60,297 bases of DNA, taken from contig CAOQRA010000003.1 in assembly GCA_948512295.1 (NCBI GenBank), positions 1 to 60,297 on the forward strand. Reading direction: 5' to 3'. The notes under the pieces are model-generated. The model had not been told where the DNA came from. It did no database searches and saw only the letters and a program-made list of their open reading frames with translations. Below, piece after piece: positions 7,884-40,014 of the stretch. Position 1 is the first letter of the stretch, and each line of letters begins with the position of its first letter. Origin of the DNA: an uncultured Eubacteriales bacterium. Lineage in GTDB: Bacteria > Bacillota > Clostridia > Christensenellales > UBA1242. A program made the position numbers and the translations under genes.

Positions 7884-7904
7884 TTTTACCTCAAAAAAAG
7901 TATA

Positions 7905-12079: not shown

Positions 12080-12132
12080 ATATTAAATATAGCTTAAACG
12101 CTCAAAAAAACAAAATAAAAAACGAAGAAAAA

Positions 12133-12453
12133 CTAACCTATGACTTGTTCGCTTTCTAATCTTTTTCGAAATCTATGATATTTTTCAATAGTATCCAGTA
12201 AATACTTTTCTCTTCCGCGTGCATCTAATCGCAACATTAGACTTTCATCCATTAAATACTTCATAGGATTTATAATGTCGGCATCACCCATAAGCAAATC
12301 TCGCACCTTGCTGTAGAATAAATCGTCATTATCGCTAATTACTTTTACATCAATATCGCTGTCAACAACATGCAAACCGTTGCCAGTTTCTTTCTTGTGT
12401 ATCATTCTGTTTTTAGCTTTAAGTGCAAGAGCTTTTAACACTTCCTTTTTCAT
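12133..12453 (-). CDS. hypothetical protein (106 aa)
   Basis: Intact ORF between holA and pcrA. No motif recognised. Confidence 0.5.
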   Translation of the reverse strand: MKKEVLKALALKAKNRMIHKKETGNGLHVVDSDIDVKVISDNDDLFYSKVRDLLMGDADIINPMKYLMDESLMLRLDARGREKYLLDTIEKYHRFRKRLESEQVIG

Positions 12454-12625
12454 ATTTACTCCTTTAAAATTTCCCCTTTTTTAGGGACTGCAAGGAAAGT
12501 ATAGCAAGAAGCGTTAATTTAGCAAAACGTATTTAACGTCGTTAAATCTAATATTATGTCGAATTTTATTAAAAAGGCGCATAATTTCAATCTTAAAAAA
12601 CACCGACAAAAATCTTACACGGAAG

Positions 12626-13582
12626 TTAAATATACAAGATAGAAAAAACAAGATAATATAATGCGGTCGTGGAAAGCATCTCTCCTGATTTAATTTTATA
12701 ATCTATATCCTCTAAAAGCGCATATATTTTTTTTAGTTGCATTTTAGAAAAATTGTTTACCTGCTCACGCTGCTTAGAAATTGCATACTCCCTTACTGAA
12801 AGAAGAGAGGCAAGCTCTGAATTGGTCATATCTGATATAGCAATAAAGAATAAGCGTCTAAAGTGATTGGTAATAAGTGCTAATGTACCTGGCTGCTTTT
12901 CCATCTGATTTAAAAGCACAATGGCTTTATCCAGATTTTTCTTACCTAAAGCTTCCGTAAGTTGAAAGACAGCGAACTCAATATTCTTATGGACAACGTT
13001 TTCTATTAATTTTTTGGTGACAAGGCTGTCGCTTGTGTCAAAGTAGATAAGTTTATCAAGTTCGTTCATAGCGAAAGTTAGATAGCCATTACAATAGTCA
13101 AGTAAAGTTTCCGCCGCCTCCGAGCTTATCTGTTTACCATTTTTAGCAAGCTCAGCGACGATAATATTTTTTGCGAGCGTTCTATCCATACGTTTTGCAT
13201 CCACAAATTCGCAAGACGTCTTGAAAGCCAAAAACTGATTATTATAATCTAAAATCATTAAAATGGTGGTTTTGCAAGGATTTTTTAAATACTCAGCCAG
13301 AATTTTGCCATCATTTTCATTTAGCTTAGCTATGTTTTTAATAATAACTAATCTTCTATCACTTCCCATAGGCATAAATTCGCAAGCGTTTACAATGGTC
13401 TGCATATTGAAGTTGTCATCATCAAAAACCGCCTTGTTAAAATCTGGCAAACATAAATTCATAGCCTTTTCAAGCATGGCTACCGCCTTGTCGTACAAAA
13501 ATAAATCCTCACCATTAACTAAATAGCATGGTGCAAGAGAAGATTTAATTCGCGACTTAAAAGTTTTCAATCCAGCCTCCAA
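12626..13582 (-). CDS. holA: DNA polymerase III delta subunit
   Basis: 318 aa. The size, the N-terminal ...YLVNGEDLFL pattern and the position immediately after comEC (conserved Firmicutes synteny) support the call. Confidence 0.75.
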   Translation of the reverse strand: MEAGLKTFKSRIKSSLAPCYLVNGEDLFLYDKAVAMLEKAMNLCLPDFNKAVFDDDNFNMQTIVNACEFMPMGSDRRLVIIKNIAKLNENDGKILAEYLKNPCKTTILMILDYNNQFLAFKTSCEFVDAKRMDRTLAKNIIVAELAKNGKQISSEAAETLLDYCNGYLTFAMNELDKLIYFDTSDSLVTKKLIENVVHKNIEFAVFQLTEALGKKNLDKAIVLLNQMEKQPGTLALITNHFRRLFFIAISDMTNSELASLLSVREYAISKQREQVNNFSKMQLKKIYALLEDIDYKIKSGEMLSTTALYYLVFSILYI

Positions 13583-15687
13583 TAATCGCTGCGGCCTGGC
13601 TCAAGTGAAAATTCAAGATTGCCAAGCTCAAAGCAGTTTATCTGATTATATCCTTGGTTATTATATAAAATTGAGCCATCGACATAAACAAGGTCGAAAA
13701 AGTTATTTTGCAGATAACTATTTATTTCATTATAACCGTTAAGAGAAAAACTAGCAAGAAAAATTGACACATCGTCAAAATTTATTTTAACCCCTAAGCC
13801 GCTTTGCTCATACTCAATATTAAACACGCCAGCATTTACCGGTTTTCCACTTTCAGCATTTAAAATAATGCTTGTACCACCCTCACATGGACATATGATC
13901 TTTTTAACATTGTAACCTGTCCATAAATCTATTTCCTCTTCAGTTGGCAAATCTTCTAAGACTACATAATCTACATTTTTAATACCTGCATTTTTTAAAT
14001 TGCGCATAATATAACTTTGCTTTAAATTTGTGTAAGTAACAATGCTGTTTCCGCTTTCACTGGTAGCGATCAAACATTCCATTTGCCCTGAGTTCAAAGT
14101 AGAAAAGCCTGTATTTGCCGCTTTAGGAATAAAGTTTACCGCAACTGACACAACAAGTAAAAGACTCATAACACTGCCAGAAATAAATTTAGCAGCCTTT
14201 TTCATAATGGTAAAATGACTTGTAAGAAATAGTATTAAGAATATAAAAATCGTCAAAGCAAGGTCAAATTGCAAAAGTGGCACTTGGAAGCTGGTGGAAG
14301 CGAAAAATTTGGCAATAATATTAGATAAATCAAAACCTCTGTCAAAAATCCATAACACTTTACCTATTGCAGGAATGATTAATATAAAAATAATAGAAAT
14401 CATCAAAAGTGGATACATAAAGGAAAACAATGGCACGATTAATAAATTGGCAAAAAATGATAGCAAATTAACTGAAGTTTGAAAGGTGGAAAGAAAAGGT
14501 AAAATGCCAATTTGAGCGGAAAACGTTAACGCTAAATATTCTGCCAGTTTATCTGGCATTACCCGTTTAAAGATGTTTGAAATCGGTCTATACAATAAGA
14601 ATATGGCGGCGACTGAAGAAAAACTCATTAAAAAGCCAATATCAAATGCATAGAGAGGTTTAATTAACAAAATGATAAAGCCTGCAAGCCCCAGCGCATT
14701 CAAGTTATCATACTGTCTGCCGCTAAGAGATGCCAGCATCATAATCACAGCCATAATGCTCGCTCGCATAACAGAGGGCGTGAAGCCGCAAACAATATTA
14801 AAAGCAAGAAGAATAATAGAAGTAATAATCGTCGTAGGCAAGCGTTTAAGTCTTAAAAGACGAAGCACGAAATATATGAGAGCAATCAAAAATCCCACAT
14901 GTAAGCCAGAAACAGTTAAAACATGAATAATCCCTGAATTTTGATAATAACCTTTGACTTCATAGTCAATGTCACTTTTATCACCAAACAGCACAGCATA
15001 ACAAATACTTGCATTGTTTTCAGACATATTAGAATATAAAACATCTTTAACTTTTAAACGCAAACTTTCATCAAAAGTCAAATATGAAGACACTACTAAG
15101 CATTGCGAATAATCGGTAGAAGCAAGGTAGCCTATATCATTTCTATAATAAAAAGAATTAAACTGTCCAAGATTAAAAAGCCTAGCAGTTTGAAGATTGG
15201 CTTTAAATGTCAGTTTATCCCCAGGCTCAAGCTTGTCTTCCTTGCCTGCACTAATATTCACATAAACATTTTTAGCATGCTCGCCATTGATAAGTACGTC
15301 TTCAAGGACGATGTAATAGCTTGCACTATCATAACTTGAATAATCTCTAAAGTTGTCCGTCACCCGCCCAACAACTACACATTCATTATCATAGCTAGGC
15401 GCTGTAGAAATATGCGACCCCAGAAAAAAGAACCCATTGCCCACCAAAAAGAAAGCCAGCACAAGTACAAATCCTTTCCACTTCCTATAGGCTATAATAA
15501 AAGCGATATAAACCGCAAAAAGTACACAAGTAAGCACAATAGGCAAAATATTCCCAGCAAAAAGCCCCTTTGCAATGGCTATTCCAAAAAGAAAAGCAAG
15601 AAAGGGATAGAAAATATATCTAAAATGCATCAACTTTTTGTCTTTCATAAAACATATTAATTGTAAATGAATTTCGTCGAAAAACAA
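13567..15687 (-). CDS. comEC: DNA internalisation competence protein ComEC/Rec2
   Basis: Polytopic membrane protein with the competence-domain signature IIHVLTVSGLHVGFL. True start uncertain (MKDKKLM... is possible). No HxHxDH metallo-beta-lactamase motif is visible in the C-terminal part. Confidence 0.85.
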   Translation of the reverse strand: MFFDEIHLQLICFMKDKKLMHFRYIFYPFLAFLFGIAIAKGLFAGNILPIVLTCVLFAVYIAFIIAYRKWKGFVLVLAFFLVGNGFFFLGSHISTAPSYDNECVVVGRVTDNFRDYSSYDSASYYIVLEDVLINGEHAKNVYVNISAGKEDKLEPGDKLTFKANLQTARLFNLGQFNSFYYRNDIGYLASTDYSQCLVVSSYLTFDESLRLKVKDVLYSNMSENNASICYAVLFGDKSDIDYEVKGYYQNSGIIHVLTVSGLHVGFLIALIYFVLRLLRLKRLPTTIITSIILLAFNIVCGFTPSVMRASIMAVIMMLASLSGRQYDNLNALGLAGFIILLIKPLYAFDIGFLMSFSSVAAIFLLYRPISNIFKRVMPDKLAEYLALTFSAQIGILPFLSTFQTSVNLLSFFANLLIVPLFSFMYPLLMISIIFILIIPAIGKVLWIFDRGFDLSNIIAKFFASTSFQVPLLQFDLALTIFIFLILFLTSHFTIMKKAAKFISGSVMSLLLVVSVAVNFIPKAANTGFSTLNSGQMECLIATSESGNSIVTYTNLKQSYIMRNLKNAGIKNVDYVVLEDLPTEEEIDLWTGYNVKKIICPCEGGTSIILNAESGKPVNAGVFNIEYEQSGLGVKINFDDVSIFLASFSLNGYNEINSYLQNNFFDLVYVDGSILYNNQGYNQINCFELGNLEFSLEPGRSDYWRLD

Positions 15688-15810
15688 AGAGTTTTGACGA
15701 AATAGTTAAAAATATTTATAATAAAATTCGTAACAACCATTAATTTTAAAGAATTTGCAAACGAAATATGTCGAAATTATAAAAAACAAGTGCTTTTCGA
15801 ATATATTTTA

Positions 15811-15838
15811 CAAAAAACGCGGGAAAGCCCGCGTTTTT
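15811..15838 (-). terminator. intrinsic terminator after the 460-aa lipoprotein gene
   Basis: AAAAAACGCGGG-AAAG-CCCGCGTTTTTT directly abutting the stop codon. Confidence 0.7.
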
Positions 15839-17220
15839 TATTCATTTTCTTGAGATATTGTCTTTTCAAATCCATTAAAGTTATATAGCGCTTTGTCAGT
15901 AAATTCATACTCAAATTCATCTATTTTTCTATAAGTGGTGTTTAATCTGCCATTAATAAGGTAGTCAGTAATAAAATCTTTAGTATTTCCGTCACTACGA
16001 ACATTAAAATCGAGATAATTTATGCCTTTGGAGTTTATTTTATAAACCTTCAAAGCTGTAGCCCCACATTCTAAGGAAGAATCTACAATTGTACCTCCTC
16101 TTGCCATATGAAGGAAATCGTTATCGTCTGAATATGTTAATAGTCCATCTTTTGATAATTTTTCAAATACTTGCTGTGTTTTTGGTAAATTATCTGTAGA
16201 GTATGAATCAATACTAAATACAATTAAACTTGTACTTTTTGTATTTGCAGGCTTAAAAGTGTTCTCATATAAATCTTTATAACTAATTTCATTAGTCAAT
16301 TGATATCTATATAATCCTAATGTGTGTCCAGTACTTCCATTTGTATAATTTAATCCTAGAATCAAATTATTTCCTTCAAAATCTATAGCAAAGATATTAT
16401 TTAGTGTTGCACCATTTAAACCAATACTTCTTTTTAAATTTTCTGCAAGAGTTATTTTAATATTTTCAACCATTTTTGGAGCATGTTCTGCTAGTTGCTC
16501 TGCGCTAAGGTTATCCCAATCAATTTCCTCTTTTTCTGGTGTAATTTCTGGAATTTCAAAACGTGTAGTGCCGACGTCTGTAATTGTGCCATTGGCATTA
16601 GAGTATTTATATTGCGCTGTACCATTGATTATTTTAATTTCAAGAGTATTTAACCCTTTACTTCCTACGAGATACTCTCCGTTGAGTTTTTCCCATGTAA
16701 TGTTATTAAATTTATCTAATGCATCATCAATGTCATGCGCATTTGCCTCTTCCCTTTCTCGCCAAGCTTCGCCGTCGTTATAGACTTTATAGGAGACATT
16801 GTCTTTTGTGTAATAATATGAAATATCGTCATTTTGAATGATTTTTGTTTCGCCGTTTGCGTATTCATAAGTCACGCCATTCTCTGTATTAGTGAAATTT
16901 TCAGCATTCATAGCGTTTGCAATAAACTCATTTGCTGTTTTAACAGCGGCGTTAAACTTTTTCTCCTCTTCATCTGGGATGTCTGGTTTTGGCGGATTTG
17001 GGTCTACTGGGTCAATAGGGTCTACCACTGGTGGATTAGGATTAACAGGGTCAACTGGAGTGTTTTGTTTATTACCACATGCGGCAAGTCCAAATATCAT
17101 GGACGCTGACATCGTAAAAGCGGCAATTGCAGCTGCCAATTTTTTTGGAAAACTAAAGCCCTTTTGTGTATTTTCAGACTTTAATTTAGCTTGTAATTTT
17201 TCTAATTCTTGATTTTTCAT
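15838..17220 (-). CDS. hypothetical lipoprotein with a Pro-rich linker (460 aa)
   Basis: Signal or anchor segment ending in the lipobox GLAAC. Followed by PVDPVNPNPPVVDPIDPVDPNPPKPDIP. Confidence 0.7.
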   Translation of the reverse strand: MKNQELEKLQAKLKSENTQKGFSFPKKLAAAIAAFTMSASMIFGLAACGNKQNTPVDPVNPNPPVVDPIDPVDPNPPKPDIPDEEEKKFNAAVKTANEFIANAMNAENFTNTENGVTYEYANGETKIIQNDDISYYYTKDNVSYKVYNDGEAWREREEANAHDIDDALDKFNNITWEKLNGEYLVGSKGLNTLEIKIINGTAQYKYSNANGTITDVGTTRFEIPEITPEKEEIDWDNLSAEQLAEHAPKMVENIKITLAENLKRSIGLNGATLNNIFAIDFEGNNLILGLNYTNGSTGHTLGLYRYQLTNEISYKDLYENTFKPANTKSTSLIVFSIDSYSTDNLPKTQQVFEKLSKDGLLTYSDDNDFLHMARGGTIVDSSLECGATALKVYKINSKGINYLDFNVRSDGNTKDFITDYLINGRLNTTYRKIDEFEYEFTDKALYNFNGFEKTISQENE

Positions 17221-17288
17221 AAATCACCTCACAAAATTTATTTTACAATTTGATTATATCATAAATTTAACATTTTTGCAATATATTT

Positions 17289-19244
17289 ATGAAAAAATTT
17301 GCTATTTATATATTTTTGAATTATAATAATGATATGAAAAGATTTGCAAGAGTCATGTGTGCCGTATTTGTCGCAATGTTTGTCCTGCTTGGTACGGGTT
17401 GTTCCAGTGGCAGTTCAAATTTCCACCAAAACCTTCTTGACCGCTTTCATAATGGCGAACTCACTTATGACCAGCTTCAAACTGAACTAGAGCGCGCTCA
17501 AACTGTGCCACTTTATGGCACAAAGGTTTTATATCGCCCAAACCACTACGACTATGATAATTCCGTGGGCGAAGGAAACGAAAGTTATTATGGACAATAC
17601 GCATGGAATATTCTATCTAACTTATCATACATATATGGATTTTCTGATTTTAATCGATTTAACCCAACGCCTCAAAAGCCTACAAATACAATACGCCCGC
17701 TTCTTATTGACAAAACACAAGAATACTACTACGACTCTATCCGCTATCAAGTCACAAACAAAACTACCACAAATAATTTAATAATTTACACACAAGATGA
17801 CAATGGAAGCGAAGAAATAGATGGAATATTATACTCAAAAAACGAATTTGAAGACATAATTAAAATGACCGCTAACACTTCTTTTTCATGGAATTGGACT
17901 TTTGGTAGCGAAGCGATTCCTTTAGGATTTATTCATGATATGACTTACAGTGTGTATTCAAAACCTAGCATCGCAAATAGCTTGATATCTAATGCCTACA
18001 TCGAAACTCCAATATCGAATTACTACTCAAACAACCAAACACCATACTCCACTGCTTATTTAGGGACGGCTGAGCAGACGGGAATTGACAGCTATTCTGA
18101 CTATGTCAAGGCGCTTGAATATGTCATTTACTGCATCACTATGGACTTGACACCATCAAACATCACGACAAGCCTTGCATCAGACGGCACGCCTATTATC
18201 AATGTTCAAGGTTTTGAAAATGTAGACGCGGCGCTTGAGTTTATCAAAGGCGTGTTTGACAAAATAGGCACTTATGTCGGGTTAAACTCATACAAAACTA
18301 ATCGACTTATAAGTTACATCTTAAACAATGTCATCGGACAAAATGCATTAAGTCATGACACGGTGCAATCCTATACCGCCAATACTTTAATAGAATATCG
18401 CGACGCTAATGGAAATGTCATTGATACGCAAGAGGAAGGCAAAACTCTTAATGAAACAATAACCGTTGGGCGCAATTATACTGCTGTAGTTTCCGCAATT
18501 ATAAATGACTCCTTTCAATACGTACACATAGGAAGCGACAGTGAAAATGACATCATCACCAACCGCTTCCCTGCCTCTGAAGTGATTGACTACTACGGTA
18601 ACAATTTCTTCATTGCAAGTGAAAAAGGCAAGGAATTTGAACATATTGGTGCCAATGAATATCAAAGCGCAGTGCTTATGCTTAGTGAAGAGCAAAAGCT
18701 GGACAACCTCATGGTTCATTTCAAATACGACGCTGGCGAGGACGGAGATGAAGTCTATGACAAAAACGCTTCAATCACAATCAATGTAAAAGTAAATTAC
18801 TATAAACACGGCGGCGAGTGGAAACAACTTAAAACACAGTCTATCACTGTTAAAGACGGTCCATTCAACTATGGAAAGGAAAGCAGCACGCTGTGCTTAT
18901 TCGGAATAGCCCCCGATAAAAAAGGATTTAAAATCGGCAAATTTAACCCTGAAGTCGGAGGCGGCATATTAAAATGCATGGTTGATTATGACGGAACAAC
19001 AGCAATCTCCGACCCCGTACGCCTTGTCGGCACCACCAAACTTAAAGACTGGTACAAACTTGTCGAGCCCGAGCCTACCGATGAACCTCAAAATGCATAT
19101 TACAGTTATGGAATACTCAATCATGAAAAATTCACTGGCTCAGACGGATGCGACTACTTTGAAATTGCCTTTGAGGTTGTAAAAACAACTGGCGACTATA
19201 ACACAAACTACAAATTCTACACTGGACTCGGTTTAGTAGCATAA
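17289..19244 (+). CDS. hypothetical secreted protein or lipoprotein (651 aa; alternative start 17334)
   Basis: From M16, MKRFARVMCAVFVAMFVLLGTGCSSG looks like a lipoprotein-type signal. Divergent from 15838..17220. Confidence 0.7.
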   Translation: MKKFAIYIFLNYNNDMKRFARVMCAVFVAMFVLLGTGCSSGSSNFHQNLLDRFHNGELTYDQLQTELERAQTVPLYGTKVLYRPNHYDYDNSVGEGNESYYGQYAWNILSNLSYIYGFSDFNRFNPTPQKPTNTIRPLLIDKTQEYYYDSIRYQVTNKTTTNNLIIYTQDDNGSEEIDGILYSKNEFEDIIKMTANTSFSWNWTFGSEAIPLGFIHDMTYSVYSKPSIANSLISNAYIETPISNYYSNNQTPYSTAYLGTAEQTGIDSYSDYVKALEYVIYCITMDLTPSNITTSLASDGTPIINVQGFENVDAALEFIKGVFDKIGTYVGLNSYKTNRLISYILNNVIGQNALSHDTVQSYTANTLIEYRDANGNVIDTQEEGKTLNETITVGRNYTAVVSAIINDSFQYVHIGSDSENDIITNRFPASEVIDYYGNNFFIASEKGKEFEHIGANEYQSAVLMLSEEQKLDNLMVHFKYDAGEDGDEVYDKNASITINVKVNYYKHGGEWKQLKTQSITVKDGPFNYGKESSTLCLFGIAPDKKGFKIGKFNPEVGGGILKCMVDYDGTTAISDPVRLVGTTKLKDWYKLVEPEPTDEPQNAYYSYGILNHEKFTGSDGCDYFEIAFEVVKTTGDYNTNYKFYTGLGLVA

Positions 19245-19261
19245 AGACAGTTTAATTTGAC

Positions 19262-19294
19262 AAAAAACGAAGAGGCGTTGCCTCTTCGTTTTTA
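19262..19294. terminator. bidirectional intrinsic terminator
   Basis: AAAAAACGAAGAGGC-GTT-GCCTCTTCGTTTTT lies between convergent genes (651-aa ORF and holin). Confidence 0.8.
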
Positions 19295-19582
19295 TTTTGT
19301 TTCTTTTTCTGCATTTTGACTTTCTTTCATGTGGTTTGTATCTTCTTGTTCTTGAGTCTGATTACTCTCCTCTGAAGTCTGATCTTGTTTATCACTACTT
19401 TCACCTTTTGGCATTGTTACAACCCCCAGTACAACCAGCAAACCCGCTACTGCCATTACAACGCCAGTAACAATTTCATTATCCACCGAAAATCCAAAAC
19501 ACTTGCCAAGAGCTTCCATTAATACAACCGCCGCCCCTGCAAGCGCAGTCCAAAAACTATATGACTTTATTCTGTTTTTCAT
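19292..19582 (-). CDS. phage holin, phi-LC3/Phage_holin_1-like (96 aa)
   Basis: SYSFWTALAGAAVVLMEALGKCFGF...VTGVVMAVAGLLVVLGVV gives two TM segments plus a charged acidic tail. RBS AAAGGAG. Family call is from recalled signature. Confidence 0.65.
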   Translation of the reverse strand: MKNRIKSYSFWTALAGAAVVLMEALGKCFGFSVDNEIVTGVVMAVAGLLVVLGVVTMPKGESSDKQDQTSEESNQTQEQEDTNHMKESQNAEKETK

Positions 19583-19799
19583 GTATTTGCTCCTTTAAAA
19601 TATGTTCTTTAAGTTCAGTGACTTCCTCTTTGACATCCTCAATTACTTGAAGCCTTTCTGTCAAGTTTTCAATGGTGTCTTGATATGCTTTTTCACGTTT
19701 TGAACTATCTTTAAGTTGGTAGAAAAATAGGAACACGAAAAGCGTAGCAAATATACCATTACTGATTACTACGCTGACAAGCTCATTCCAAAAATCCAT
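19557..19799 (-). CDS. BhlA/UviB-family holin-like protein (80 aa)
   Basis: One N-terminal TM (NGIFATLFVFLFFYQLKDSSKRE) followed by a coiled-coil tail, matching the recalled BhlA/UviB pattern. Confidence 0.65.
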   Translation of the reverse strand: MDFWNELVSVVISNGIFATLFVFLFFYQLKDSSKREKAYQDTIENLTERLQVIEDVKEEVTELKEHILKEQIHEKQNKVI

Positions 19800-19907
19800 T
19801 TCCCTTACCCCTCAATTCTTCGCTTATAAAAATATGTTTCATAGCTTTCTCCTCTTGATATAACTTTTTTCTAGCAAGGTATGAGATATGGTTTAAGTTG
19901 AAAATTA

Positions 19908-21386
19908 TCATTGTTCACTCATTGATAAATTAAAGTTGGATATGCTCCCATTTCCATTACTTTCTATAGTAACTTTAAACTTTTCCCCTGCAAGTCCACA
20001 ACGAAAAGTCTGCTGTTTTTGCTGAGGCTCAACTGCAAATACTCTTTGCTCTTTTTCAGTCGCTATAGTAATATTGAACTTTCCAGTTGCAAAACAAGAA
20101 AACTCTTCCAGTTTTTTAACACGATTACTCATTCCGAAATCACTCATGGGACTTTCCCACACGCTATATGGTTTTTCACCAAAAATATTACCATCAGTGA
20201 CAAGTTCCCCCATGCGCCCTATGTGCTGATTATTAAAGCACATTACCACTTTACATTTATAAGGATTATTAAGAGCAATGATTTTTTTTACGTCTACACC
20301 GCGTAAAAAATCCACACTGCCATTTTCTATGTTATATACCATAATTGCATTGTTTATATATCCATTTTCATAACTTTCACAGCCAATTTTCTGCTGGTCG
20401 CCAAAGTCAACCCGACAAGCAAGATAATATTTACTTTCGAAACATACTGCACTTAGATTACGGCCGTCTGAAATCACTTCACGACAATTTAATTTCAGTT
20501 TTTTGACATTGACTCCATCAAAACGATAGAAGCCATCTGTAGTCAAAAAGTAAACATTCTCTCCATCGGAAGCGATGGAGCCTGGATAAATATAACTGCT
20601 GGATTGAAACATATGATTGATATTAAATTCCCCAGAAGACGCATAAGTTGATATTCGTGTAATACCAAAATCTCGAAAAACATACAAGTAGTCATTAAAA
20701 GACATTACGACCGACGGATTTCCTCGATCATCGGTAAATTCTATATGCTGAGTGGTGTTATTCTTCCACTCTAAAAGATTTTTATTGTCAGAATATACAA
20801 GCTTAGGACGCGCAGTGGCAGTAAGTGCATAAAGCATGTCATCATGACTGCAGCAAGACATGAGTTTTGGCGCATCAGAAAGATAAGTATTATAGCCTGC
20901 TCCAAAAACAAAAACATCGCCATCTGCTGCTGAAAAAAGCATGTAGTCAGAACCATTTATACGATAGCTCATTCCAATTGGTGTGGAGGTGTATTCTGTT
21001 TTTCTGACAAGTCTTATTGGTCTTGTCCAAAACATATTTTCATATCCCAATGTGGCTTCATCATTGAAATAAAATAGATAGTACTCAATCACATTGCCTG
21101 TTTCATTGAACCATGCAAAATTCCATATATTTAATATTTCACTGCCTGCATACTCTACTACTACTTCATTGTCTAAATCAGTAGTGCTGGTAGGCATTTG
21201 TAAGTCGCGCACGCCATAACCACAGGAAAGCATGTTACCTTTGTTTCGAAAATTGTAACAACGAACACAATCGTGATATTCAAGTTCTTCCTCATTTTTA
21301 CTGCGAACTTGACATTTTTCAAATAGGTCAAATTTAAAAAGCTTTTTATTTCTCTTAAAAGAGTTTAACTTTTTAGGATAAAACAT
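19908..21386 (-). CDS. phage structural protein, tail-hub/nozzle-like by position (492 aa)
   Basis: Start set to ATG 21386 (AGGAGG plus 8 nt), which shares one nucleotide with the upstream stop (TAATG). Beta-rich with recurring aromatic-Gly strands (YFLTTDGFYRFDG, YMLFSAADGDVFVFG). The call rests on synteny and size only. Confidence 0.45.
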   Translation of the reverse strand: MFYPKKLNSFKRNKKLFKFDLFEKCQVRSKNEEELEYHDCVRCYNFRNKGNMLSCGYGVRDLQMPTSTTDLDNEVVVEYAGSEILNIWNFAWFNETGNVIEYYLFYFNDEATLGYENMFWTRPIRLVRKTEYTSTPIGMSYRINGSDYMLFSAADGDVFVFGAGYNTYLSDAPKLMSCCSHDDMLYALTATARPKLVYSDNKNLLEWKNNTTQHIEFTDDRGNPSVVMSFNDYLYVFRDFGITRISTYASSGEFNINHMFQSSSYIYPGSIASDGENVYFLTTDGFYRFDGVNVKKLKLNCREVISDGRNLSAVCFESKYYLACRVDFGDQQKIGCESYENGYINNAIMVYNIENGSVDFLRGVDVKKIIALNNPYKCKVVMCFNNQHIGRMGELVTDGNIFGEKPYSVWESPMSDFGMSNRVKKLEEFSCFATGKFNITIATEKEQRVFAVEPQQKQQTFRCGLAGEKFKVTIESNGNGSISNFNLSMSEQ

Positions 21387-21940
21387 TATAACCACCTCCT
21401 CCTAGGCAGGCGCACGGCAGTCTTTTTGCTTATAAACAGCTTTAAGCTTTCTTTAAATCGGTTTTCATAAATGTCCGCATCTGCCCCCTGTCCCTGAAGC
21501 AGAAAATACTCTCTTGCAACTCCATAAGCTATAACTCTTGCAGGTATCATTAAGTCAATATCACTAACTAAAGTGGCAGCTTCGGGCGAATAAGAATATA
21601 TTATCTTGGCTTTGTCAGCAAACACCAAAATGTATTTATCAAAGATTTTATATCTTATCTTGCGTCCTTTAGTATTCTTTACAGAAAAGATATTTAACGG
21701 TTTTTTAGAAAATTGATCGAATGTAAGTTTCAAATTATTTACCTCTAAAATTTCCTCCGTGGTTACAGGCGAATATTGTTCGCATATTTCGCCGATAACA
21801 AGATTTAGACAATTTAAATAACTATCAGCGACCTTGCTTTCTGCCGTTGTAAGACTGGATATGTCCGTGCTGTTTAGCTTTTCACGGAGAGGATTTTGTG
21901 TAAAGTCACAAGCAAGTCTTAAAATTTCATAGCTTTTCAT
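21386..21940 (-). CDS. phage head-tail adaptor-like protein by position (184 aa)
   Basis: Translationally coupled on both sides. Basic C-terminus RLPRRRWL. No motif recognised. Confidence 0.4.
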   Translation of the reverse strand: MKSYEILRLACDFTQNPLREKLNSTDISSLTTAESKVADSYLNCLNLVIGEICEQYSPVTTEEILEVNNLKLTFDQFSKKPLNIFSVKNTKGRKIRYKIFDKYILVFADKAKIIYSYSPEAATLVSDIDLMIPARVIAYGVAREYFLLQGQGADADIYENRFKESLKLFISKKTAVRLPRRRWL

Positions 21941-22251
21941 AATATTTCCTCCACAACTTTTTCTACTGCAGAATGCAGTTGTTTTTTTTGCAACTTATCA
22001 TTTTCTGCATCCATTTGTTTTATAATTTCATCCATTTTCTCTTTGCGAGTTTTAAGCGCGTAAAAGATGGCACGCTCGTCTAAAACGTCATCTTTTACGC
22101 TGAAACAAAATGACCCACCAAACTGCTGCGTTGAATGCACTTCATAACGTTTTTCTTTTAAATTAAAAAGTATAAAATAACTTTTGTCCACTTCTTTCAA
22201 TCTTTGAGCAATAAAAAGTGGATCATTTTCTATTAAACAATAATTCTTCAC
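21937..22251 (-). CDS. phage hypothetical protein (104 aa, GTG start)
   Basis: GTG preceded by AAAGGAG plus 7 nt. Lies directly after the capsid gene. Confidence 0.5.
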   Translation of the reverse strand: MKNYCLIENDPLFIAQRLKEVDKSYFILFNLKEKRYEVHSTQQFGGSFCFSVKDDVLDERAIFYALKTRKEKMDEIIKQMDAENDKLQKKQLHSAVEKVVEEIL

Positions 22252-22271
22252 ACTTAAAACTCCTTTTGAAA

Positions 22272-23480
22272 CTATGCACCAGTTGTAGTAGGAATATATG
22301 TTTTATATGGATCTTCTACTGTAAACTTAACATTAGAAATTTTTCCTTGACCAAATGGTTTGTCGCAAATAAGTTCAGCATATTTAACAAGTGTTGCGCT
22401 ATAAGTAGGATAACCTGCATTTTGTCTTAACACTCTGCCGCCCTCATCTTCAATCCACTTCCAATCGCAAAGTTCATATAGTGTAAAGTCATCAGTATTG
22501 AGAAGATACATGCTGCTAGGCTCTACAAATCTGTCAGCGTATACAGGTATTCCGTTATGACTAATGGTTTTAGCCCCATTTGCAAGTTCTACAATATCTA
22601 CATTCTTACGATAGATATTTAAATATTGCTGATAAGCACGACGAATTTGACGAGAGGTTGAAATAAAGTTGATAGAAGAATCAGCATTTTCCTCTAAAAA
22701 GTCGATGGCACTTTGAATACGTATATCAGAAATTTCACTTTCAGCATTGTCATGGAAAGAATTAAGCCAGTTGTAGTCTGCTTTATTTAAACCATACAAA
22801 GTAGTACCACTAAACAATGCTTCAATACCTGTAAGTTCATTGTCTTTTGAACCTTGAACATAAAGCTTAGCATTTGCAGTTATAGATGTGGTAAAATCAG
22901 AAGTATCATATTTAATTGTGTTATTGACTCTGTCAACTGAAACAACTTTCATAGGTCCTTTACCAAGTCTTGAACCAGTGATATATGGAGTAAGCATCAT
23001 GCCTTCCACAATGTTACGTACACTATCTACAGTAAGCGTTTTATCAGAAGCAACTGATTGTACAGTAGCAACAAGCCCCTCACCATCTCCATAAAGCATA
23101 CGGCTTAAATTGAAACTGCAAGCTTTTACAAGTGATTCCATTTCGTCTGCAAGAAGGTTGACAAAAGCTCCCACATTGCTTGCAGAAGCACGAACTGCCT
23201 TGTCAGAAATTTCAAATTTACCATATAGGTTTTTAAGGCTTGCACGCATTTGTGCATAATGACTATTACCAGCAACAGGAAGTGCATCCGTTTCGGTGCC
23301 AGCACCAAAGCCGCCATTTATTCCAAATGGAGCAGCTTTAACAATTTCTTTTCCGAAAATATCCTTACTAGAACGTTTAATTTTAGCTAAAAGTGGGCTT
23401 GCTGAAACGTTAATTTGATCAGCAACGACTCCTAAATAAACACTTTTAAGGGCATTTTCAGCGGTTTGTAATGTAACCAT
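22272..23480 (-). CDS. phage major capsid protein (HK97-fold type, 402 aa)
   Basis: The N-terminal AENALKSVYLGVVADQIN...SPLLAKIKR...NLYGKFEISDKAVRAS...LYGDGEG matches the recalled pattern of major capsid proteins of Firmicutes phages. Follows the portal and scaffold genes. Confidence 0.8.
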   Translation of the reverse strand: MVTLQTAENALKSVYLGVVADQINVSASPLLAKIKRSSKDIFGKEIVKAAPFGINGGFGAGTETDALPVAGNSHYAQMRASLKNLYGKFEISDKAVRASASNVGAFVNLLADEMESLVKACSFNLSRMLYGDGEGLVATVQSVASDKTLTVDSVRNIVEGMMLTPYITGSRLGKGPMKVVSVDRVNNTIKYDTSDFTTSITANAKLYVQGSKDNELTGIEALFSGTTLYGLNKADYNWLNSFHDNAESEISDIRIQSAIDFLEENADSSINFISTSRQIRRAYQQYLNIYRKNVDIVELANGAKTISHNGIPVYADRFVEPSSMYLLNTDDFTLYELCDWKWIEDEGGRVLRQNAGYPTYSATLVKYAELICDKPFGQGKISNVKFTVEDPYKTYIPTTTGA

Positions 23481-23494
23481 AATTTTCTCCTTTT

Positions 23495-24136
23495 TTAACT
23501 AAACATTTTTTCCACCAACGATTTCGCTTCTTTAAGGGAAGTTGGAGTGTCAGGCTTGCTGCTTGACACTCTTTCACCCTTTTGCGAAGAAATGATGATT
23601 GGTGATTTTTGCTCTTTGAGCGCATCAAGATAACTTTCAACTATCTTGTTTTTAATCTCCTCGCTAGAAACAAGGTATCGATTAATAATAGGATCATCCA
23701 CTTTTTTGGTGTGCATGTGCGATAGTACTAATTGCGCCCATGCTGCCTCATACGGATTATCCATTTTTTGCAGCTCATTATTGGAACTTACAATATTTTC
23801 AAGCTCCCCTTTAAACTGCATAGCTTCTTCATTTTTCAAAAGGAATTGATTAAGCTGCTCGCTGAAGTTGCGAGGAGCCACCTCAACTTTATCTTTTTCC
23901 AGTTGACTAAGCTTTTGACACTTTTTTGTAAACTCGGCTTCCAAATTGTTATAGGCGTCAATAAGCGCCTGTGCAGATTTGAATTTGCCAAACGTTTGCT
24001 CTTCGGGATTTTCATCTTGTCGAATTAAAGTATCGGGTAGAGAGCCATTCTCACTCACAGCACACTCATTCTTCGTTTCAATAGAAACATTTGCCGGTTC
24101 CTCTAATGGTTGTTCTCTAAATTCTTCTTCGTTCAT
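23495..24136 (-). CDS. phage scaffolding-like protein (213 aa)
   Basis: Acidic, helical and low-complexity; contains FKSAQALIDAYNNLEAEFTKK. Sits between portal and capsid, with an ATGA overlap to the portal stop. Confidence 0.65.
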   Translation of the reverse strand: MNEEEFREQPLEEPANVSIETKNECAVSENGSLPDTLIRQDENPEEQTFGKFKSAQALIDAYNNLEAEFTKKCQKLSQLEKDKVEVAPRNFSEQLNQFLLKNEEAMQFKGELENIVSSNNELQKMDNPYEAAWAQLVLSHMHTKKVDDPIINRYLVSSEEIKNKIVESYLDALKEQKSPIIISSQKGERVSSSKPDTPTSLKEAKSLVEKMFS

Positions 24137-25986
24137 ACTTTCACCTCACTCAAAGTTTTTTTATGTTGATTTATATGTTCCAAAAATACATCCTCTAATT
24201 TTACATTGTTTTTAAGAGCTTTCTCATACTCGCCACCAAGCATAAAGGAAATATGCTCCGCAATATGAAGTTCAGCGTCATCAATAGGGCTGACTTTAAC
24301 GACAACTCCATCCAGCATTTTAAGATTTTCATTGTCAGCACGTTTTATATGAAGCTCGGAAATATCTTGAGCATTTTCCCAATTTCCAAAGCCAAGCATT
24401 TCAAGCACTTTATTTTTCATACGCGAGGAAAGTTTCCCCTCTTCGTCATGAAGCACGCCCGCTTTAAGTAAACTAAAAACCATTTCTCGACGGCCTGTTA
24501 AGCTGTCAGACAGTTCTGATTGAACATCAATGACCACGTCGTCACTTGAAATATCGTTGGAGGAAAAGTAAAACATTTCAACTTGTCCATTGTCGCCAAT
24601 AAGTCTTGCTAGACGAGGGAAAAGTGCATATTGCTTATATAGCCTTAATATTCGCTTAGCAATGTTAATACAAGCACTGCGAATACTTTCTATTGTGGTG
24701 TTTAATCTGGCTTCATCTTGACCTATCATAAGTTCAAGCGCCGCACCACTCATGTTTGCGTTTACATAATCTGTACCAAGAGTTTCACTGACTCCGCTTA
24801 TTCTATTAAATTCATCAAGAAGTTTGCTCTCTTCATCGGCAAAACCAGATGGAATTGCTTCTCCTGACAAGAATTTAGGCTGCTGTGCACCTTGGCGATA
24901 GACAATGACTTTGCCAGGACATAAGCCCTCCTCTTCTAAATTTTCAAGGTCAACTGAGCCATCTTCTATGCTGAGTACTCCTAAGGTTAAACGATTGATA
25001 AATTCATGTTTGCGATTTTTAACAGCATTGTAGGCACGCTGTACTGGCACTAATCTTTCAATCACACTGCTTCCCCAAAAACAGCCCGCTTGCTCCAAAC
25101 TAACTTGTCTAATAAACGGGAAATCGCGCTTTTTATCATCGCCACATAAATAAGGCAGTTCATCATCGTAAACAAGTACATCGCCTACTACAATAATCAA
25201 CCTACCTTTTGGAAAGGAAGCACAAGGCCGAACATATTTTTCTAGCACAAGCGCACTATTTGTCTTAGTGCCCTCTACAAATTTAGTAGTGGTAGCATTA
25301 TAGCCAAGCCCTCCTAGGCCATTTAAAACATTGTCAAGACTGTAACAATTAATATCCTGACCTTTTAAATCAAGGCCGTACATGGTTCTAACTTCTTCTA
25401 TAGAATATGCCCTAGCATGAATAATGCTTTGGCAATCGTTTAAGCTTTCTCTTGTTGGCGAATCAGGATATATTTCAAAAGGGCTAATCGCTTCGACCTC
25501 AACTTCACCACTGCGGATAGAATTGCCCTCCTCACTGTTTGCAATTACTTGACCAAGCTTCCCATTCCAAGTTACTTTATAAAAGCTTGTCCCAGTAACT
25601 TCACTCCATTTTATTGCTTGATTGATTTTCTCGTCGATACAAAGCTTATAATGTACAGATTCCAAAATCTTTTTGGATACTTTGGCAGTTTGCTTATCAC
25701 TTTCATCATTAGTCGCAGGCACGACAGTAAACTTTGGCTTTGACCCCGTCAGTTTGGCCGTTCGCACATCATAAAGCGGAGCGATATGATTAAACACTTC
25801 CCTCTCCTGCCAAAAGAACTGTTTGTCCGCCTCCTCGACAAGCCCGCCATAGCCCACATTGCAATATTGGTTTCCCATTAAAAAGTTCATATTGATTTGC
25901 CAATTAGTTTCAAAGGGCTTGCGCTCAAGTTGTCGTCTTTTAAAATCTTCAATTACTTCATTTACTACTGTTTTATTGTTTTTCAT
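24133..25986 (-). CDS. phage portal protein (617 aa)
   Basis: Size, the N-terminal ...PFETNWQINMNFLMGNQY pattern and the position ahead of scaffold and capsid. Confidence 0.75.
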   Translation of the reverse strand: MKNNKTVVNEVIEDFKRRQLERKPFETNWQINMNFLMGNQYCNVGYGGLVEEADKQFFWQEREVFNHIAPLYDVRTAKLTGSKPKFTVVPATNDESDKQTAKVSKKILESVHYKLCIDEKINQAIKWSEVTGTSFYKVTWNGKLGQVIANSEEGNSIRSGEVEVEAISPFEIYPDSPTRESLNDCQSIIHARAYSIEEVRTMYGLDLKGQDINCYSLDNVLNGLGGLGYNATTTKFVEGTKTNSALVLEKYVRPCASFPKGRLIIVVGDVLVYDDELPYLCGDDKKRDFPFIRQVSLEQAGCFWGSSVIERLVPVQRAYNAVKNRKHEFINRLTLGVLSIEDGSVDLENLEEEGLCPGKVIVYRQGAQQPKFLSGEAIPSGFADEESKLLDEFNRISGVSETLGTDYVNANMSGAALELMIGQDEARLNTTIESIRSACINIAKRILRLYKQYALFPRLARLIGDNGQVEMFYFSSNDISSDDVVIDVQSELSDSLTGRREMVFSLLKAGVLHDEEGKLSSRMKNKVLEMLGFGNWENAQDISELHIKRADNENLKMLDGVVVKVSPIDDAELHIAEHISFMLGGEYEKALKNNVKLEDVFLEHINQHKKTLSEVKV

Positions 25987-26197
25987 CTTTTTTCAACCTC
26001 TTATTTAGTTTAAACGGGCTTGCTACCGCCTTTGGCACTTTAATTTTCTTCGCCGCATCATAAAGTTCGTTTACGCACTCTTCACAAAGACATATGTCGC
26101 GCCTAAGAAGCCCTTTCTTTACAAAAGTGAACCTTGCGACATTTCGACAACCTGCAAAGTCGCACTTAACTTTGTGAGAACACTCATATACTTCCAT
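25973..26197 (-). CDS. small zinc-ribbon protein (74 aa)
   Basis: CSHKVKC...C...CLCEEC cysteine pairs and a basic tail. Overlaps both neighbours by 14 nt. Occupies the slot where a large terminase would normally be. Confidence 0.6.
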   Translation of the reverse strand: MEVYECSHKVKCDFAGCRNVARFTFVKKGLLRRDICLCEECVNELYDAAKKIKVPKAVASPFKLNKRLKKDEKQ

Positions 26198-26480
26198 CCT
26201 CTTCCTCCTTTAAAATATTTAATAGTCGTGCTCGCTCAGCTTGAAGTTCTTCGTCAGACATGTTACGAATTTGTTCTGCTAAATCACCTCCCGAAAACTT
26301 TTCAAAAAGCACTCGCATCGCCGTGATGTCTGGGCTAACATGTTTTTTGGTCACTTTCTTTTTGGTAAGCTTCGCCTGACCATTCTCATCAAGAGCATAC
26401 TCCATCACCACTTCTTGAGTGTCATAACCAAGAGCTTTTTTCATGAGTGCCTTTTTAAGCTTTTCTTCTTCATCTAGCAT
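26184..26480 (-). CDS. terminase small-subunit-like fragment (98 aa, no N-terminal HTH)
   Basis: KKALGYDTQEVVMEY..DENG....KKKVTKKHVSPDITAMRVL resembles the central segment of Terminase_2-type TerS proteins (recalled pattern). First gene of the operon, RBS GGGAGGAAGG. Confidence 0.4.
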   Translation of the reverse strand: MLDEEEKLKKALMKKALGYDTQEVVMEYALDENGQAKLTKKKVTKKHVSPDITAMRVLFEKFSGGDLAEQIRNMSDEELQAERARLLNILKEEEDGSI

Positions 26481-26505: not shown

Positions 26506-26534
26506 ATTATATTTGCGTAAGTTTCCACTTTCAA
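26506..26534 (-). promoter_or_regulatory. near-consensus sigma-A promoter of the capsid operon (TTGAAA-N17-TATAAT)
   Basis: Minus strand reads TTGAAA gtggaaacttacgcaaa TATAAT. The -10 ends 26 nt before the ATG at 26480. It is the only intergenic space upstream of the operon. Confidence 0.6.
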
Positions 26535-26559: not shown

Positions 26560-26590
26560 TAAAAAACCACCAGAATACTGGTGGGTTTTA
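26560..26590 (-). terminator. intrinsic terminator after the Cys-rich gene
   Basis: Minus strand reads AAAACCCACCAG-TATT-CTGGTGGTTTTTT. Confidence 0.75.
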
Positions 26591-26593
26591 AAT

Positions 26594-26956
26594 TTAGCAG
26601 CATTTACGGCCAAACATACTTCCTGCAAGAAAGAATATTGCAGAGCTCGGAATACTAAAATTCATGCAGCCACAATTATTTGGTCGCTTGTTACAATCAC
26701 ATGGAGTGTGACAAGCTCTGTTGCATGGACGATGACACGGTCTGTCACATACGTTATGACAAGGACGTTCACATGGTCTAGCGTTATGACAAGGGCATGG
26801 ATTTTTGCAATCCCACTTATAATCACATGGATTTATTTGTGGTCTACAATTACAAGGACGTTCAGGTCTGAATCCGAAATCCCAGTCTTCTGGCCAATTA
26901 TTTTGACAGTTGTGCATATCAAAATAGTCGCCTGTTTTATAATTACAATTGTACAT
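26594..26956 (-). CDS. cysteine/histidine/proline-rich protein with a hydrophobic C-terminus (120 aa)
   Basis: 20 Cys in 120 aa. Iterated RPC(H/N/E) units (RPCERPCHNVCDRPCHRPCNRACHTPC), then SAIFFLAGSMFGRKCC. RBS AGGAGAAAAT. Confidence 0.7.
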   Translation of the reverse strand: MYNCNYKTGDYFDMHNCQNNWPEDWDFGFRPERPCNCRPQINPCDYKWDCKNPCPCHNARPCERPCHNVCDRPCHRPCNRACHTPCDCNKRPNNCGCMNFSIPSSAIFFLAGSMFGRKCC

Positions 26957-35115: not shown

Positions 35116-38100
35116 CTAAATCTTAGAAATATATATTTTTATTTCTTTTCCATCAAGATTGAGTGAGGTGTTAAAGTCGCCAATTTCTCCTGCTTTAAAC
35201 TCATCGGCGAGGATATCTCCAACAAACTGAGATTTGTTTGTCAAAAGTAGCTGTTGCAAGCTGTTGTCACCACTCACCTCAACGTGGATATGATTTACCA
35301 CTTCAAGTCCACTATCTTTGCGCAAATTTTGAACTTTGCTGACAAACTCATTGATATAACCTTTTTCAACAAGCTTAGGTGTAAGCGAAGTGTCAAGCAC
35401 GACAGTTGTTTCGCCATTAGTTTGAGAAGAGAACCCTTCTTTATTTTTAAGGCTTATGATTAAATCTTCTTCCTTTAGCGTAAGGTCCTGTCCATTAACA
35501 TTAAAGCAAACTTCGCCATGTTCTTTGACTTTTTTCACCAAACTAGTGCCATCACATGAGGCAAGAAAAGCACGAATATCATTTAGAAATCTGCCATACT
35601 TAGGTCCCAGTGTTTTGAGTTGCGGTTTAACTTCATAAAGTACATAACCATCCGCATCATTTAGAACTTCAAAATTTTCAACATTAAGTTCGTCTTGTAT
35701 AAGTGCGATGAGCTGACTGTCTAAATCCAGTTTCTTAGTTGACGCCACCATTACTTTACTAAGCGGTTGACGATTTTTAACGCCGCTTGCACTGCGGCAT
35801 GCACGCCCCAAATTGACAATCTCAAGGACCTTATTCATGCCGTCATTGAGTTTCGTATCTATATATTTTTCATCAGCCTCAGGATAGCGACAGAAATGCA
35901 CACTTTCAGGAACGCTAAAGTCGAGACTTCTGACAAGATTTTGATAAAGCTGCTCTGACATAAATGGCACAAAAGGAGCAATAAGTTTTGTAAGCCCAAC
36001 TAGCACCTCATACAATGTTTTATAAGCAGCAATTTTGTCCTCAGTCATCTCACTGCCCCAATATCTGTCACGTGAACGTCGAACATACCAGTTGGAAAGT
36101 TTGTCCACAAAATCGGTGATTGCACGAGAAGATGATAGCATATCAAAAGCTTCAAGTTTCTCATTAACAAATTTTACAAGGCTATTGTATTCACTTAGGA
36201 GCCATTTGTCAAGGTAAGAAAGCTTGCAATTCTCAAGAGAATATTTTAAAGGATTCATTTGGTCTATTTCCGCATAAAGTACATAGAACGCATAAACATT
36301 CCAAAGTGTGCCCATAAACTTACGTTGAAGTTCAACTAATGTGTCCTCATTAAAAGCAAGGCCTTGCGCCGGCAAGCAGTTTGAGAAGAAATACCATCTC
36401 ACGCCATCAGCGCCATATTTATTTAACACTTGCCATGGGTCTATTCCATTGCCAAGACTCTTTGACATTTTAAGCCCGTTGCGGTCAAGTACAAGTCCAA
36501 GCACATTGCATGCTTTGTATGGACTTTTGCCAAACAGTGCAGTGTTAACCGCTTGCAACGTATAAAACCAGCCACGAGTTTGATCTATCGCCTCACTAAT
36601 ATAATCAGCTTGAAATGTCTTTTCAAACAATTCTTTATTTTCAAAAGGATAATGAAGCTGAGCAAATGGCATCGCCCCACTATCAAACCAGCAGTCCATA
36701 ACCTCAGGAGTTCTTGTCATGGTCTTGCCACAATGAGGGCAAGGGAAAGTAATTTTATCGAGTGTAGGCTTATGCAAATCAAGGTGCCCTGTCACGCCAG
36801 AGAGTTTTTTAAGCTCTTCCACGCTGCCCACAACATGCATATGCCCATTTTCACAAAGCCAGAAAGGCAGTGGAGTTCCCCAGAAGCGATTGCGTGAAAT
36901 ACCCCAATCAATGTTATTCTCAAGGAAATTACCCATTCTGCCATTCTTAATAAAGTCTGGACGCCAATCTATTTTTTTGTTATTTGCCACCATCTTGTCT
37001 TTATACTCAGTAGTTTTAATAAACCAGTTACTTTTTGCATAATACAAAAGTGGGCTTTTGCAACGCCAGCAATGCGCACAAGAATGCTCAATTGGTTGCA
37101 CTTTAAACATTTTGCCACGTTCGGTCAGTGTTTTAATAATAAGTTTGTCAGCATCTTTAACAAACATTCCAGCAAACTCAGTATCGCTTGTCAGCTTGCC
37201 CGCCTCATCAACAAGTTGAATAAAATCTAGCCCGTATTTCTTGCCAACATTGTAATCCTCTTCACCAAAGGATGGTGCTATATGTACTATACCACTGCCG
37301 TCCTCGGTGGTGACATAGTCATCAACTACAACAAAGTATCCCTTCTTTACATCCTTGACTACATAATCAAAGATTGGTTCATAACGCTGAAACTCAAAAG
37401 CTTTCCCTTTTTTTGTGTAAAGCTTTGTATAACTGCCCTCTTCAAAAAGAGTGTCAATTAGACTGTCAAGCAAAATATAGTTTTTACCATTTGTGGAAAT
37501 TTTAGAATATAGCTCATGCGGATTCATACATAGTGCGATATTGCTTGGCAGTGTCCACGGAGTAGTCGTCCAAACAAGAAAATAAGTATTTTCTTCTTCC
37601 AAACTTTTAAACTCAACAAAAATAGAGTTTTCCTTAAGCACTTTGTAGTTATCACCATTTTCAAGCTCTGCTTTAGACAAACTTGTACCACAACGCGGAC
37701 AATATTGCACCACCTTGTGGCCTTGGTAGATAAGTCCTTTTTTGTCCATCTCTTTTAATGCCCAAAATATACTTTCAATATAGTTATTGTCATATGTGAT
37801 GTAAGGATTTTCCATATCCACCCAGTAGGCAGTTTTGTCAGTCAAATCCTCCCACATGCTTTTATATTCCCAAACAGAAGCTTTGCACTTTTCAATAAAC
37901 TTATCAATGCCGTACTCTTCAATATCTTTCTTACCCTTAAAGCCAAGACGTTTTTCCACCTCCACTTCAACAGGCAAACCATGAGTATCCCACCCGGCCT
38001 TGCGATATACAAAAAATCCTTTCATCGCCTTAAAGCGAGGAAGCACATCCTTCATAGCACGAGTAAGTACATGACCAATGTGAGGTTTCCCATTTGCAGT

Positions 38101-38247: not shown

Positions 38248-38264
38248 ATCTTTCCCCTTTTAAA

Positions 38265-39959: not shown

Positions 39960-40014
39960 ATAAAAAATATTTATTCATAATGTTTTATTCTTTAACAAAA
40001 ACAAAGGAGGAAAT

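Follow-up and report, generated by a model that had tools for sequence, protein, structure and literature searches.

Analysis of a 60,297-nucleotide stretch from the genome of an uncultured gut bacterium of the Christensenellales (GenBank assembly GCA_948512295.1, contig CAOQRA010000003.1, positions 1 to 60,297; hereafter the window, or contig C3) indicates that two small open reading frames (ORFs), which we call p98 and p74, are probably the first two genes of a phage-derived operon for head formation, packaging and lysis. The explanation that we favor, and consider probable as a whole, is that the operon is inherited vertically, that its large terminase gene (TerL) has been separated from it, that it encodes p74 together with the core of a small terminase (TerS) without a helix-turn-helix (HTH) domain, and that its products form particles resembling gene transfer agents (GTAs). 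A first-pass annotation of this DNA had proposed that TerL is lost and that the two small genes occupy its place in front of the portal gene. The coordinates of both frames, the motifs quoted for them and the 14-nt overlaps at p98/p74 and at p74/portal are as described there, but the loss and replacement of TerL are contradicted by an intact TerL elsewhere in the same genome. The genes that head the operon are as follows.

Positions 26184 to 26480, minus strand: p98 (98-aa ORF), a predicted homologue of the small-terminase oligomerization core without an N-terminal HTH domain.
Positions 25973 to 26197, minus strand: p74 (74-aa ORF), a member of an uncharacterized family, predicted to form a four-Cys zinc ribbon plus a helix and to end in a basic tail.
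Positions 24133 to 25986, minus strand: portal, P22-like, 617 aa (PF16510 3.5e-16; phrog_156 1.6e-30).

Searches with the portal and with TerL covered 101 genomes of the family in 58 genera, the TerL search also covered an order-wide sample of 151 genomes from 42 families, and 80 related loci were fetched for gene order. The source genome (1.08 Mb in 52 contigs, approximately 98% complete) encodes an intact TerL of 476 aa on contig C7 (positions 36936-38366; Terminase_6N 3.7e-12), in which the Walker A (GGNRSGKT) and Walker B (DFVWFDEE) motifs and the nuclease aspartates are conserved, and whose neighbors are host genes that include those for ValRS, a PBP5-type carboxypeptidase and a BclA-like protein. 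This TerL was recovered from 98 of the 101 family genomes, with identities of 45-70% for matches that span nearly the whole protein. In the order-wide sample, TerL matches reach E <= 1e-20 in 74 of the 151 genomes, and about half of the 42 families contain a close relative (>55% identity over the greater part of the protein). The absence proposed from the window does not extend to the homologous loci, as TerL lies directly upstream of p98, p74 and portal in many genera of the family. The full contiguous order is tightly packed and consists of a sigma-70-region-4-like 171-aa gene, a gene on the opposite strand for a 257-aa secreted protein, TerL, p98, p74, portal, scaffold, major capsid protein (MCP), three further genes, a ~380-aa gene, a DUF7934 gene, BhlA and a holin. 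Within the source genus and its nearest relatives (approximately 50 of the 80 loci) TerL and its two upstream neighbors are located elsewhere, and TerL in these split relatives lies 3-54 kb from the portal operon or on another contig. No TerL pseudogene or remnant was detected in the window, where the best tblastn match (E 0.07) falls outside the interval in front of portal. Because many genera have the order TerL-p98-p74-portal and TerL is present elsewhere in the source clade, the p98-p74 pair does not fill an empty terminase slot. Rather, a rearrangement in the source clade moved TerL away and left p98 and p74, whose native place is between TerL and portal, at the head of the operon, with the rest of the operon now apparently behind a promoter-like sigma-70 consensus site.

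It is extremely improbable that TerL was instead lost altogether, leaving a motor-less capsid cassette with the small pair in the terminase slot, which would produce empty capsids or use the terminase of a helper phage in the manner of a capsid-forming island. Such a loss would fit with the lack of any TerL within 10 kb upstream of p98, both in the window and in the roughly 50 nearest loci, and with the presence of two prophage-type TerL genes elsewhere in the genome; however, the cognate TerL on C7 is intact, conserved across the family and contiguous with p98 in many genera, and no integrase or replication genes of the kind carried by phage-inducible chromosomal islands occur in the flanks. 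The element further differs from phage-inducible or capsid-forming islands, whose integrase and replication module were not found in the flanking genes here, in having a chromosomal position that is fixed across genera.

Several observations concern the other terminase genes and the surroundings of the C7 TerL. The two prophage-type TerL genes reside in canonical TerS-TerL-portal arrays with long co-directional runs (contig C9, positions 18521-23163, and contig C2, positions 59972-65190; Terminase_3 3.6e-47 and TerL_ATPase 5e-23) and probably represent two prophages. The secreted proteins of 257 aa and 787 aa beside the C7 TerL, which have signal peptides and a weak SH3_3 signal, gave no evidence of belonging to the element. 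The BclA-like collagen-repeat protein near TerL (C7, positions 40013-40810, and positions 16014-16811 of related locus L020; BclA_C 1.8e-14) is a hint of an exosporium and, by extension, of spore formation.

The portal gene is as widespread as TerL, being present in 98 of the 101 family genomes and in 58 of 58 genera, with one locus per genome in most. Its identity to the portal of the source genome tracks that of LigA (Spearman rho 0.74, n=73; means 49.7% and 51.9%), a correlation that is descriptive only since the genomes are related. Host genes that flank the element are common to four genera, and median pairwise ratios of nonsynonymous to synonymous substitution rates (dN/dS) are 0.15-0.51 for all ten operon genes, with medians of 0.30 for p98 and 0.20 for p74. 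The same small pair precedes the homologous portal genes, as the first-pass annotation had suggested checking: p98 is upstream of portal in 77 of the 80 loci, and p74 lies between the two in 68 loci by single-sequence search, to which a profile search adds five of nine re-examined. The overlap of p98 with p74 is kept in 68 of 68 loci (most often at 14 nt) and that of p74 with portal in 60 of 67, in agreement with the earlier impression that these junctions are selected and are not the product of a ragged deletion. When 2.9 million IMG/VR contigs were scanned by pattern, p98 turned up on just four, each of which carries this same element, and no integrase or replication genes were present beside the operon or the TerL locus among the flanking genes scanned. 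Taken together, the tracking of LigA, the shared host flanks, the dN/dS values, the conserved overlaps and the rarity in IMG/VR argue for a domesticated podovirus-like particle system as opposed to a prophage, and the element looks to be inherited vertically under purifying selection in small-genome gut Clostridia.

Given these patterns, we consider it very improbable that the locus is a decaying cryptic prophage remnant without current function. A remnant would account for the lack of replication, integration, obvious tail-fiber and endolysin genes in the element and for the fragmented portal matches in a few genera, but all of its genes are intact, it is retained in 98 of 101 genomes and 58 genera with shared host flanks, its dN/dS values are well below 1 and its overlaps are conserved. 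The portal matches in question are partial or in 2-3 short pieces in nine genomes (G005, G062, G050, G092, G016, G022, G044, G002 and G059); TerL is more divergent in seven of these (45-50% identity; 58% in G022 and 65% in G044) and LigA gave no match at E <= 1e-30. These nine genomes may constitute a divergent subclade or may carry a decaying element.

The relationship of p98 to small terminases is suggested by both profile and structural comparisons. p98 matches the small-terminase family PHROG 309 (5.2e-5; residues 6-55 on profile positions 196-238 of 319), as do 38 of 42 p98 homologues (best 1.4e-8), and eight of the homologues match phrog_23444, a second TerS PHROG. No match to p98, neither to a TerS nor to an HTH family, was found in Pfam and NCBIfam. 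The first-pass description of this product as TerS-like and devoid of an HTH is thus upheld with respect to PHROG 309, with supportive structural matches below, though not with respect to the TerS families of Pfam. An AlphaFold2 model of p98 (predicted local distance difference test score, pLDDT, 88.7) consists of a helix, a long beta-hairpin and three helices, with one helix before the core hairpin. The best matches of this model in BFVD are annotated small terminases (2e-5 and 2.9e-5, at high root-mean-square deviation, rmsd), with TerS making up roughly half of the 18 best. Against 48,161 PDB chains the TerS core of phage SF6 ranks first and second (3zqm at Z 4.5 and 3zqp at Z 4.0, with the next chain at 2.9); model residues 1-61 superimpose on residues 66-120 of 3zqm and residues 1-77 on residues 66-131 of 3zqp, at an identity of about 20%. 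A Foldseek search of the model against the PDB returned nothing, and a PDB sequence-profile search with p98 gave chance matches only (designed repeat proteins).

A further link is provided by a 182-aa protein encoded directly upstream of a TerL gene in another order of Clostridia, which aligns over residues 84-173 with the p98 profile (hhalign probability 95%, E 1.9e-8) and has a weak, sub-threshold HTH signal at residues 38-70. Because this protein in the TerS position aligns with p98 only after its HTH signal, p98 appears to be the core of a canonical TerS, starting where the DNA-binding domain ends. The p98 family is large, with 1,216 representatives at 50% identity reaching E <= 1e-3. Ten longer homologues inspected by eye have no obvious HTH and carry Lys/Ala-rich basic extensions instead, and no fusions of p98 (>=210 aa) were found, which is weak evidence. 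We conclude that p98 is, as judged from profiles and model, the predicted ring-forming oligomerization core of a small terminase without the HTH domain for DNA recognition, with fold evidence that is supportive and not decisive.

The second gene, p74, encodes six Cys residues, of which C12, C17, C38 and C41, along with N19, are invariant in 36 homologues, in keeping with the four-Cys zinc ribbon that had been read from the sequence. Also common to these homologues are a basic tail, a conserved Pro-Lys and a helix that follows the second Cys pair, and an AlphaFold2 model (pLDDT 80) has a three-stranded zinc ribbon followed by a helix. No Pfam, NCBIfam, PHROG or PDB match assigns a function to p74; its PDB sequence-profile search gave only a chance match to uS14 at E 0.012, and its fold matches consist of uncharacterized proteins in BFVD (best 4.5e-3), PDB chains at Z <= 3.8 in the wide search and its own unnamed family in the ESM Atlas. 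No p74 fusions (>=145 aa) were found, which again is weak evidence. Thus, p74 is a predicted four-Cys zinc ribbon of an uncharacterized family. Elsewhere in the class, in other orders, a gene resembling p74 occupies one of two places: immediately before a TerL with 54% identity to that on C7, or after TerL and before portal. Since it adjoins TerL or portal in other orders, also where no p98 is detected, p74 would appear to be a packaging-module gene in its own right.

One arrangement in another order (positions 11500-14259 of locus L131, from genome G448, and locus L132) consists of a p74-like gene, the TerL with 54% identity, a 90-aa gene, a 132-aa gene and a sigma-like gene, with portal on another contig. 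The 132-aa gene has a weak match to P22 gp3 (GP3_package, 6e-4), and the arrangement seems to have been split independently, with TerL followed by a different TerS candidate.

These observations bear on whether p98 and p74 are terminase parts at all. It is conceivable, and in our estimation unlikely, that particles are made without p98 and p74 being terminase components. p98 might for example be a structural protein of the virion or one associated with the portal, and p74 a regulator or a chaperone of assembly; TerL would then need no small subunit or would use a different one. Lactococcus phage proteins of roughly 100 aa, among them one named 'structural protein', match the p98 model in BFVD at similar strength, p98 is downstream of TerL, the gp3-like protein follows TerL in an order where no p98 was found, and p74 is without an assignable fold. 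Set against this are the PHROG 309 matches of 38 of the 42 p98 homologues, the two top PDB matches to a TerS core and the alignment of the p98 profile to the C-terminal part of the 182-aa protein in the canonical TerS position, weak as its sub-threshold HTH signal is.

Under the explanation that p98 is a TerS core, it would still assemble and activate TerL on DNA but would do so without sequence specificity, as is reported for the small terminases of GTAs. p74 would act with terminase or portal at the start of packaging, where it probably provides a non-specific DNA contact or bridges TerS-TerL to portal; the basic tail, the zinc ribbon and the linkage to packaging genes lead us to infer that p74 supplies DNA contact for the HTH-less TerS. 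The system would then make small, short-tailed particles that pack host DNA and are released through two holins. By analogy with described systems, the element is most likely a gene-transfer-agent-like particle system. It combines phage-derived head and packaging genes with an absence of replication or integration genes among the neighbors scanned, both of its loci are flanked by host genes, its genes are at more than one locus (TerL on contig C7 and the operon on C3) and its apparent vertical inheritance under purifying selection is clade-wide.

In a genome of such small size, the window retains the genes for ComEC (13567-15687), DprA (50470-51537; PF02481 1.3e-77) and ComM (51539-53071; PF13541 7.4e-48), and recipients of the Rhodobacter GTA need ComEC, DprA and ComM. 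The retention of these three genes, together with the absence of a contractile tail or tailocin-type gene, makes it unlikely that the particle is real and packages DNA but does so for killing, lysis or another non-transfer role, as with PBSX. Such a role would agree with the presence of two holins in the operon and with the lack of a recognizable receptor-binding protein in the source clade, and the same caveat has been raised for the GTA of Faecalibacterium prausnitzii, FpGTA (PMC12946183).

A number of points weigh against the interpretation of the element as a GTA-like system with an HTH-less terminase. For the source lineage, particles, packaged DNA and transfer are predictions from genes alone. 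The structural matches of p98 score low when taken absolutely (Z 4.5; high BFVD rmsd), and its position, downstream of TerL in contiguous loci and unlinked to it in the source genome, is atypical for a TerS. p74 was not found in four of the 80 loci, where there is only an AT-rich spacer or no gap, it has no informative homologue or detected fusion, and p74-like genes are present in genomes of other orders that yielded no p98, so joint action of the two is not required. The sigma-70 consensus site before p98 is unlike what would be expected for a tightly repressed lytic module. Missing from the source clade are the ~380-aa and DUF7934 genes, which in relatives follow the 495-aa gene, and neither an endolysin in the element nor a receptor-binding protein was recognized. 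Because of these missing genes and the missing endolysin, the particle may be incomplete in the source clade; it may also differ there or use unlinked genes.

In related loci with the contiguous arrangement, the space from the 495-aa gene to BhlA is occupied by the genes in question, one of ~380-520 aa and one for DUF7934 (PF25588 1.4e-44) (L033, positions 6076-8216; L034, positions 12857-15063; L035, positions 13308-15909). A 374-aa gene of this type is absent from the source genome by single-sequence search only, and the DUF7934 gene is also missing; the two may represent a lost tail fiber or receptor-binding pair.

The closest published system is FpGTA, a likeness by description with no claim of orthology. 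FpGTA is encoded by a 10.5-kb operon with a TerS without DNA-binding domain, TerL, portal, scaffold and MCP, and by a second locus of receptor-binding and lysis genes, and it forms ~40-nm particles that package 8.4-8.9 kb of host DNA (PMC12946183, Nat Commun 2026). Each system is a compact operon of phage origin, found in gut Clostridia, whose TerS has no DNA-binding domain and is accompanied by TerL, portal, scaffold, capsid and podovirus-like proteins; each occupies two loci, is nearly ubiquitous in its host clade and has holin-mediated release, with the element here being known from genes alone. They differ in that the MCP of FpGTA is annotated 'N4-gp56 family' whereas the MCP here matches NF033394 and no other NCBIfam family at E <= 0.01. 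Furthermore, TerS is upstream of TerL in FpGTA, and TerL and portal there have consecutive accession numbers, whereas here the TerS-like and zinc-ribbon genes come after TerL and before portal, and in the source clade TerL is unlinked.

In Rhodobacter capsulatus, the RcGTA small terminase g1 is reportedly a short TerS without a specific DNA-binding domain, part of a vertically inherited domesticated element at more than one locus. From such descriptions RcGTA would share the short HTH-less TerS, vertical inheritance and dispersed loci with the element described here; RcGTA is said to differ in being siphovirus-like and alphaproteobacterial and in that g1 precedes TerL. We know of no zinc-ribbon partner in RcGTA. 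The SF6/SPP1-like TerS G1P (3zqm, 3zqp) has an oligomerization core that aligns with p98, which is without the N-terminal HTH of G1P. The nearest cultured phages by portal similarity have about 23% identity. Among them, Arthrobacter phage Casserole also has two small ORFs between terminase and portal, gp11 and gp12; these were considered as counterparts and rejected, as they are not homologous to p98 or p74.

Downstream of p98, p74 and portal, the ~7-kb operon contains scaffold, capsid, three further proteins and the two holins, and a GGAGG or AAGAGG ribosome-binding site precedes the start codons of p98, p74 and portal. The remaining features are as follows.

Positions 23495 to 24136, minus strand: scaffold-like 213-aa protein, assigned by position between the portal and capsid genes; kept in relatives, no family match.
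Positions 22272 to 23480, minus strand: major capsid protein of podovirus type (NF033394 6.4e-70; phrog_14242 7e-45).
Positions 21937 to 22251, minus strand: 104-aa conserved protein, possibly for head completion, a role from gene order and size only; present in at least 69 loci.
Positions 21386 to 21940, minus strand: 184-aa conserved protein, possibly a head-tail adaptor by position and size; no Pfam or PHROG match.
Positions 19908 to 21395, minus strand: conserved 495-aa structural protein that may be a tail hub or nozzle, with a weak match to phrog_3287 'virion structural protein' (4.3e-4).
Positions 19557 to 19799, minus strand: BhlA-family holin (PF10960 6.6e-18).
Positions 19292 to 19582, minus strand: second holin (PF04531 1.2e-5; phrog_297 1.3e-12).
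Positions 19263 to 19293, no strand: hairpin terminator closing the operon, 14-bp stem.
Positions 26506 to 26534, minus strand: putative sigma-70-type promoter TTGAAA-17-TATAAT, a consensus match only (11/12), which would serve the operon in the split arrangement.
Positions 26567 to 26584, minus strand: intrinsic terminator of the upstream Cys-rich gene (7-bp stem with 5 GC pairs, then a T run), the upstream operon boundary.

The candidate adaptor role of the 184-aa protein follows the size and gene order of P22 gp4. Some relatives (loci L092, L093, L097, L099 and L101-L103) have two tandem major-capsid paralogues. The neighbors of the operon are host genes: ComEC, holA, PcrA and LigA to one side, an ABC transporter and PepF to the other. 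Directly upstream of the operon is a gene for a 120-aa protein with ~20 Cys (26594-26956, minus strand), which has no Pfam or PHROG match and has homologues in three of the 80 related loci (L040, L044 and L063). Past the holin end, a divergent pair of genes for proteins of 460 aa and 651 aa (window positions 15838-19244) has no family matches; in 32 related loci the 651-aa gene, whichever way it is oriented, remains beside the holins at that end. A comparison by eye of the regions upstream of TerL and upstream of p98 revealed no shared regulatory motif.

GTAs have long been known mostly from Alphaproteobacteria. The first GTA from a gut commensal was described in 2026, and in the same study GTA-like packaging of DNA from a Christensenellaceae metagenome-assembled genome was seen, with the loci not identified (PMC12946183). 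The element described here is a strong candidate for the genes behind that packaging, and is fixed in nearly every sampled genome of a family of gut bacteria with genomes of roughly 1 Mb. We advance as a tentative possibility, one that we would still call doubtful, that p98 and p74 form a two-piece HTH-less small terminase downstream of TerL, in which p98 would be the ring core and the basic tail of p74 would make sequence-independent DNA contact, and that this pair turned an ancestral podovirus packaging machine into a packager of random DNA and is the genetic basis of the GTA-like packaging in Christensenellaceae. Compared with known GTA-like elements that have an HTH-less TerS, what is new is the unstudied zinc-ribbon partner and the unusual gene order. 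p98 and p74 consequently bear on how a phage packaging machine loses its sequence specificity, with a TerS that appears cut to its ring core and an unstudied zinc-ribbon protein beside TerL or portal across orders.

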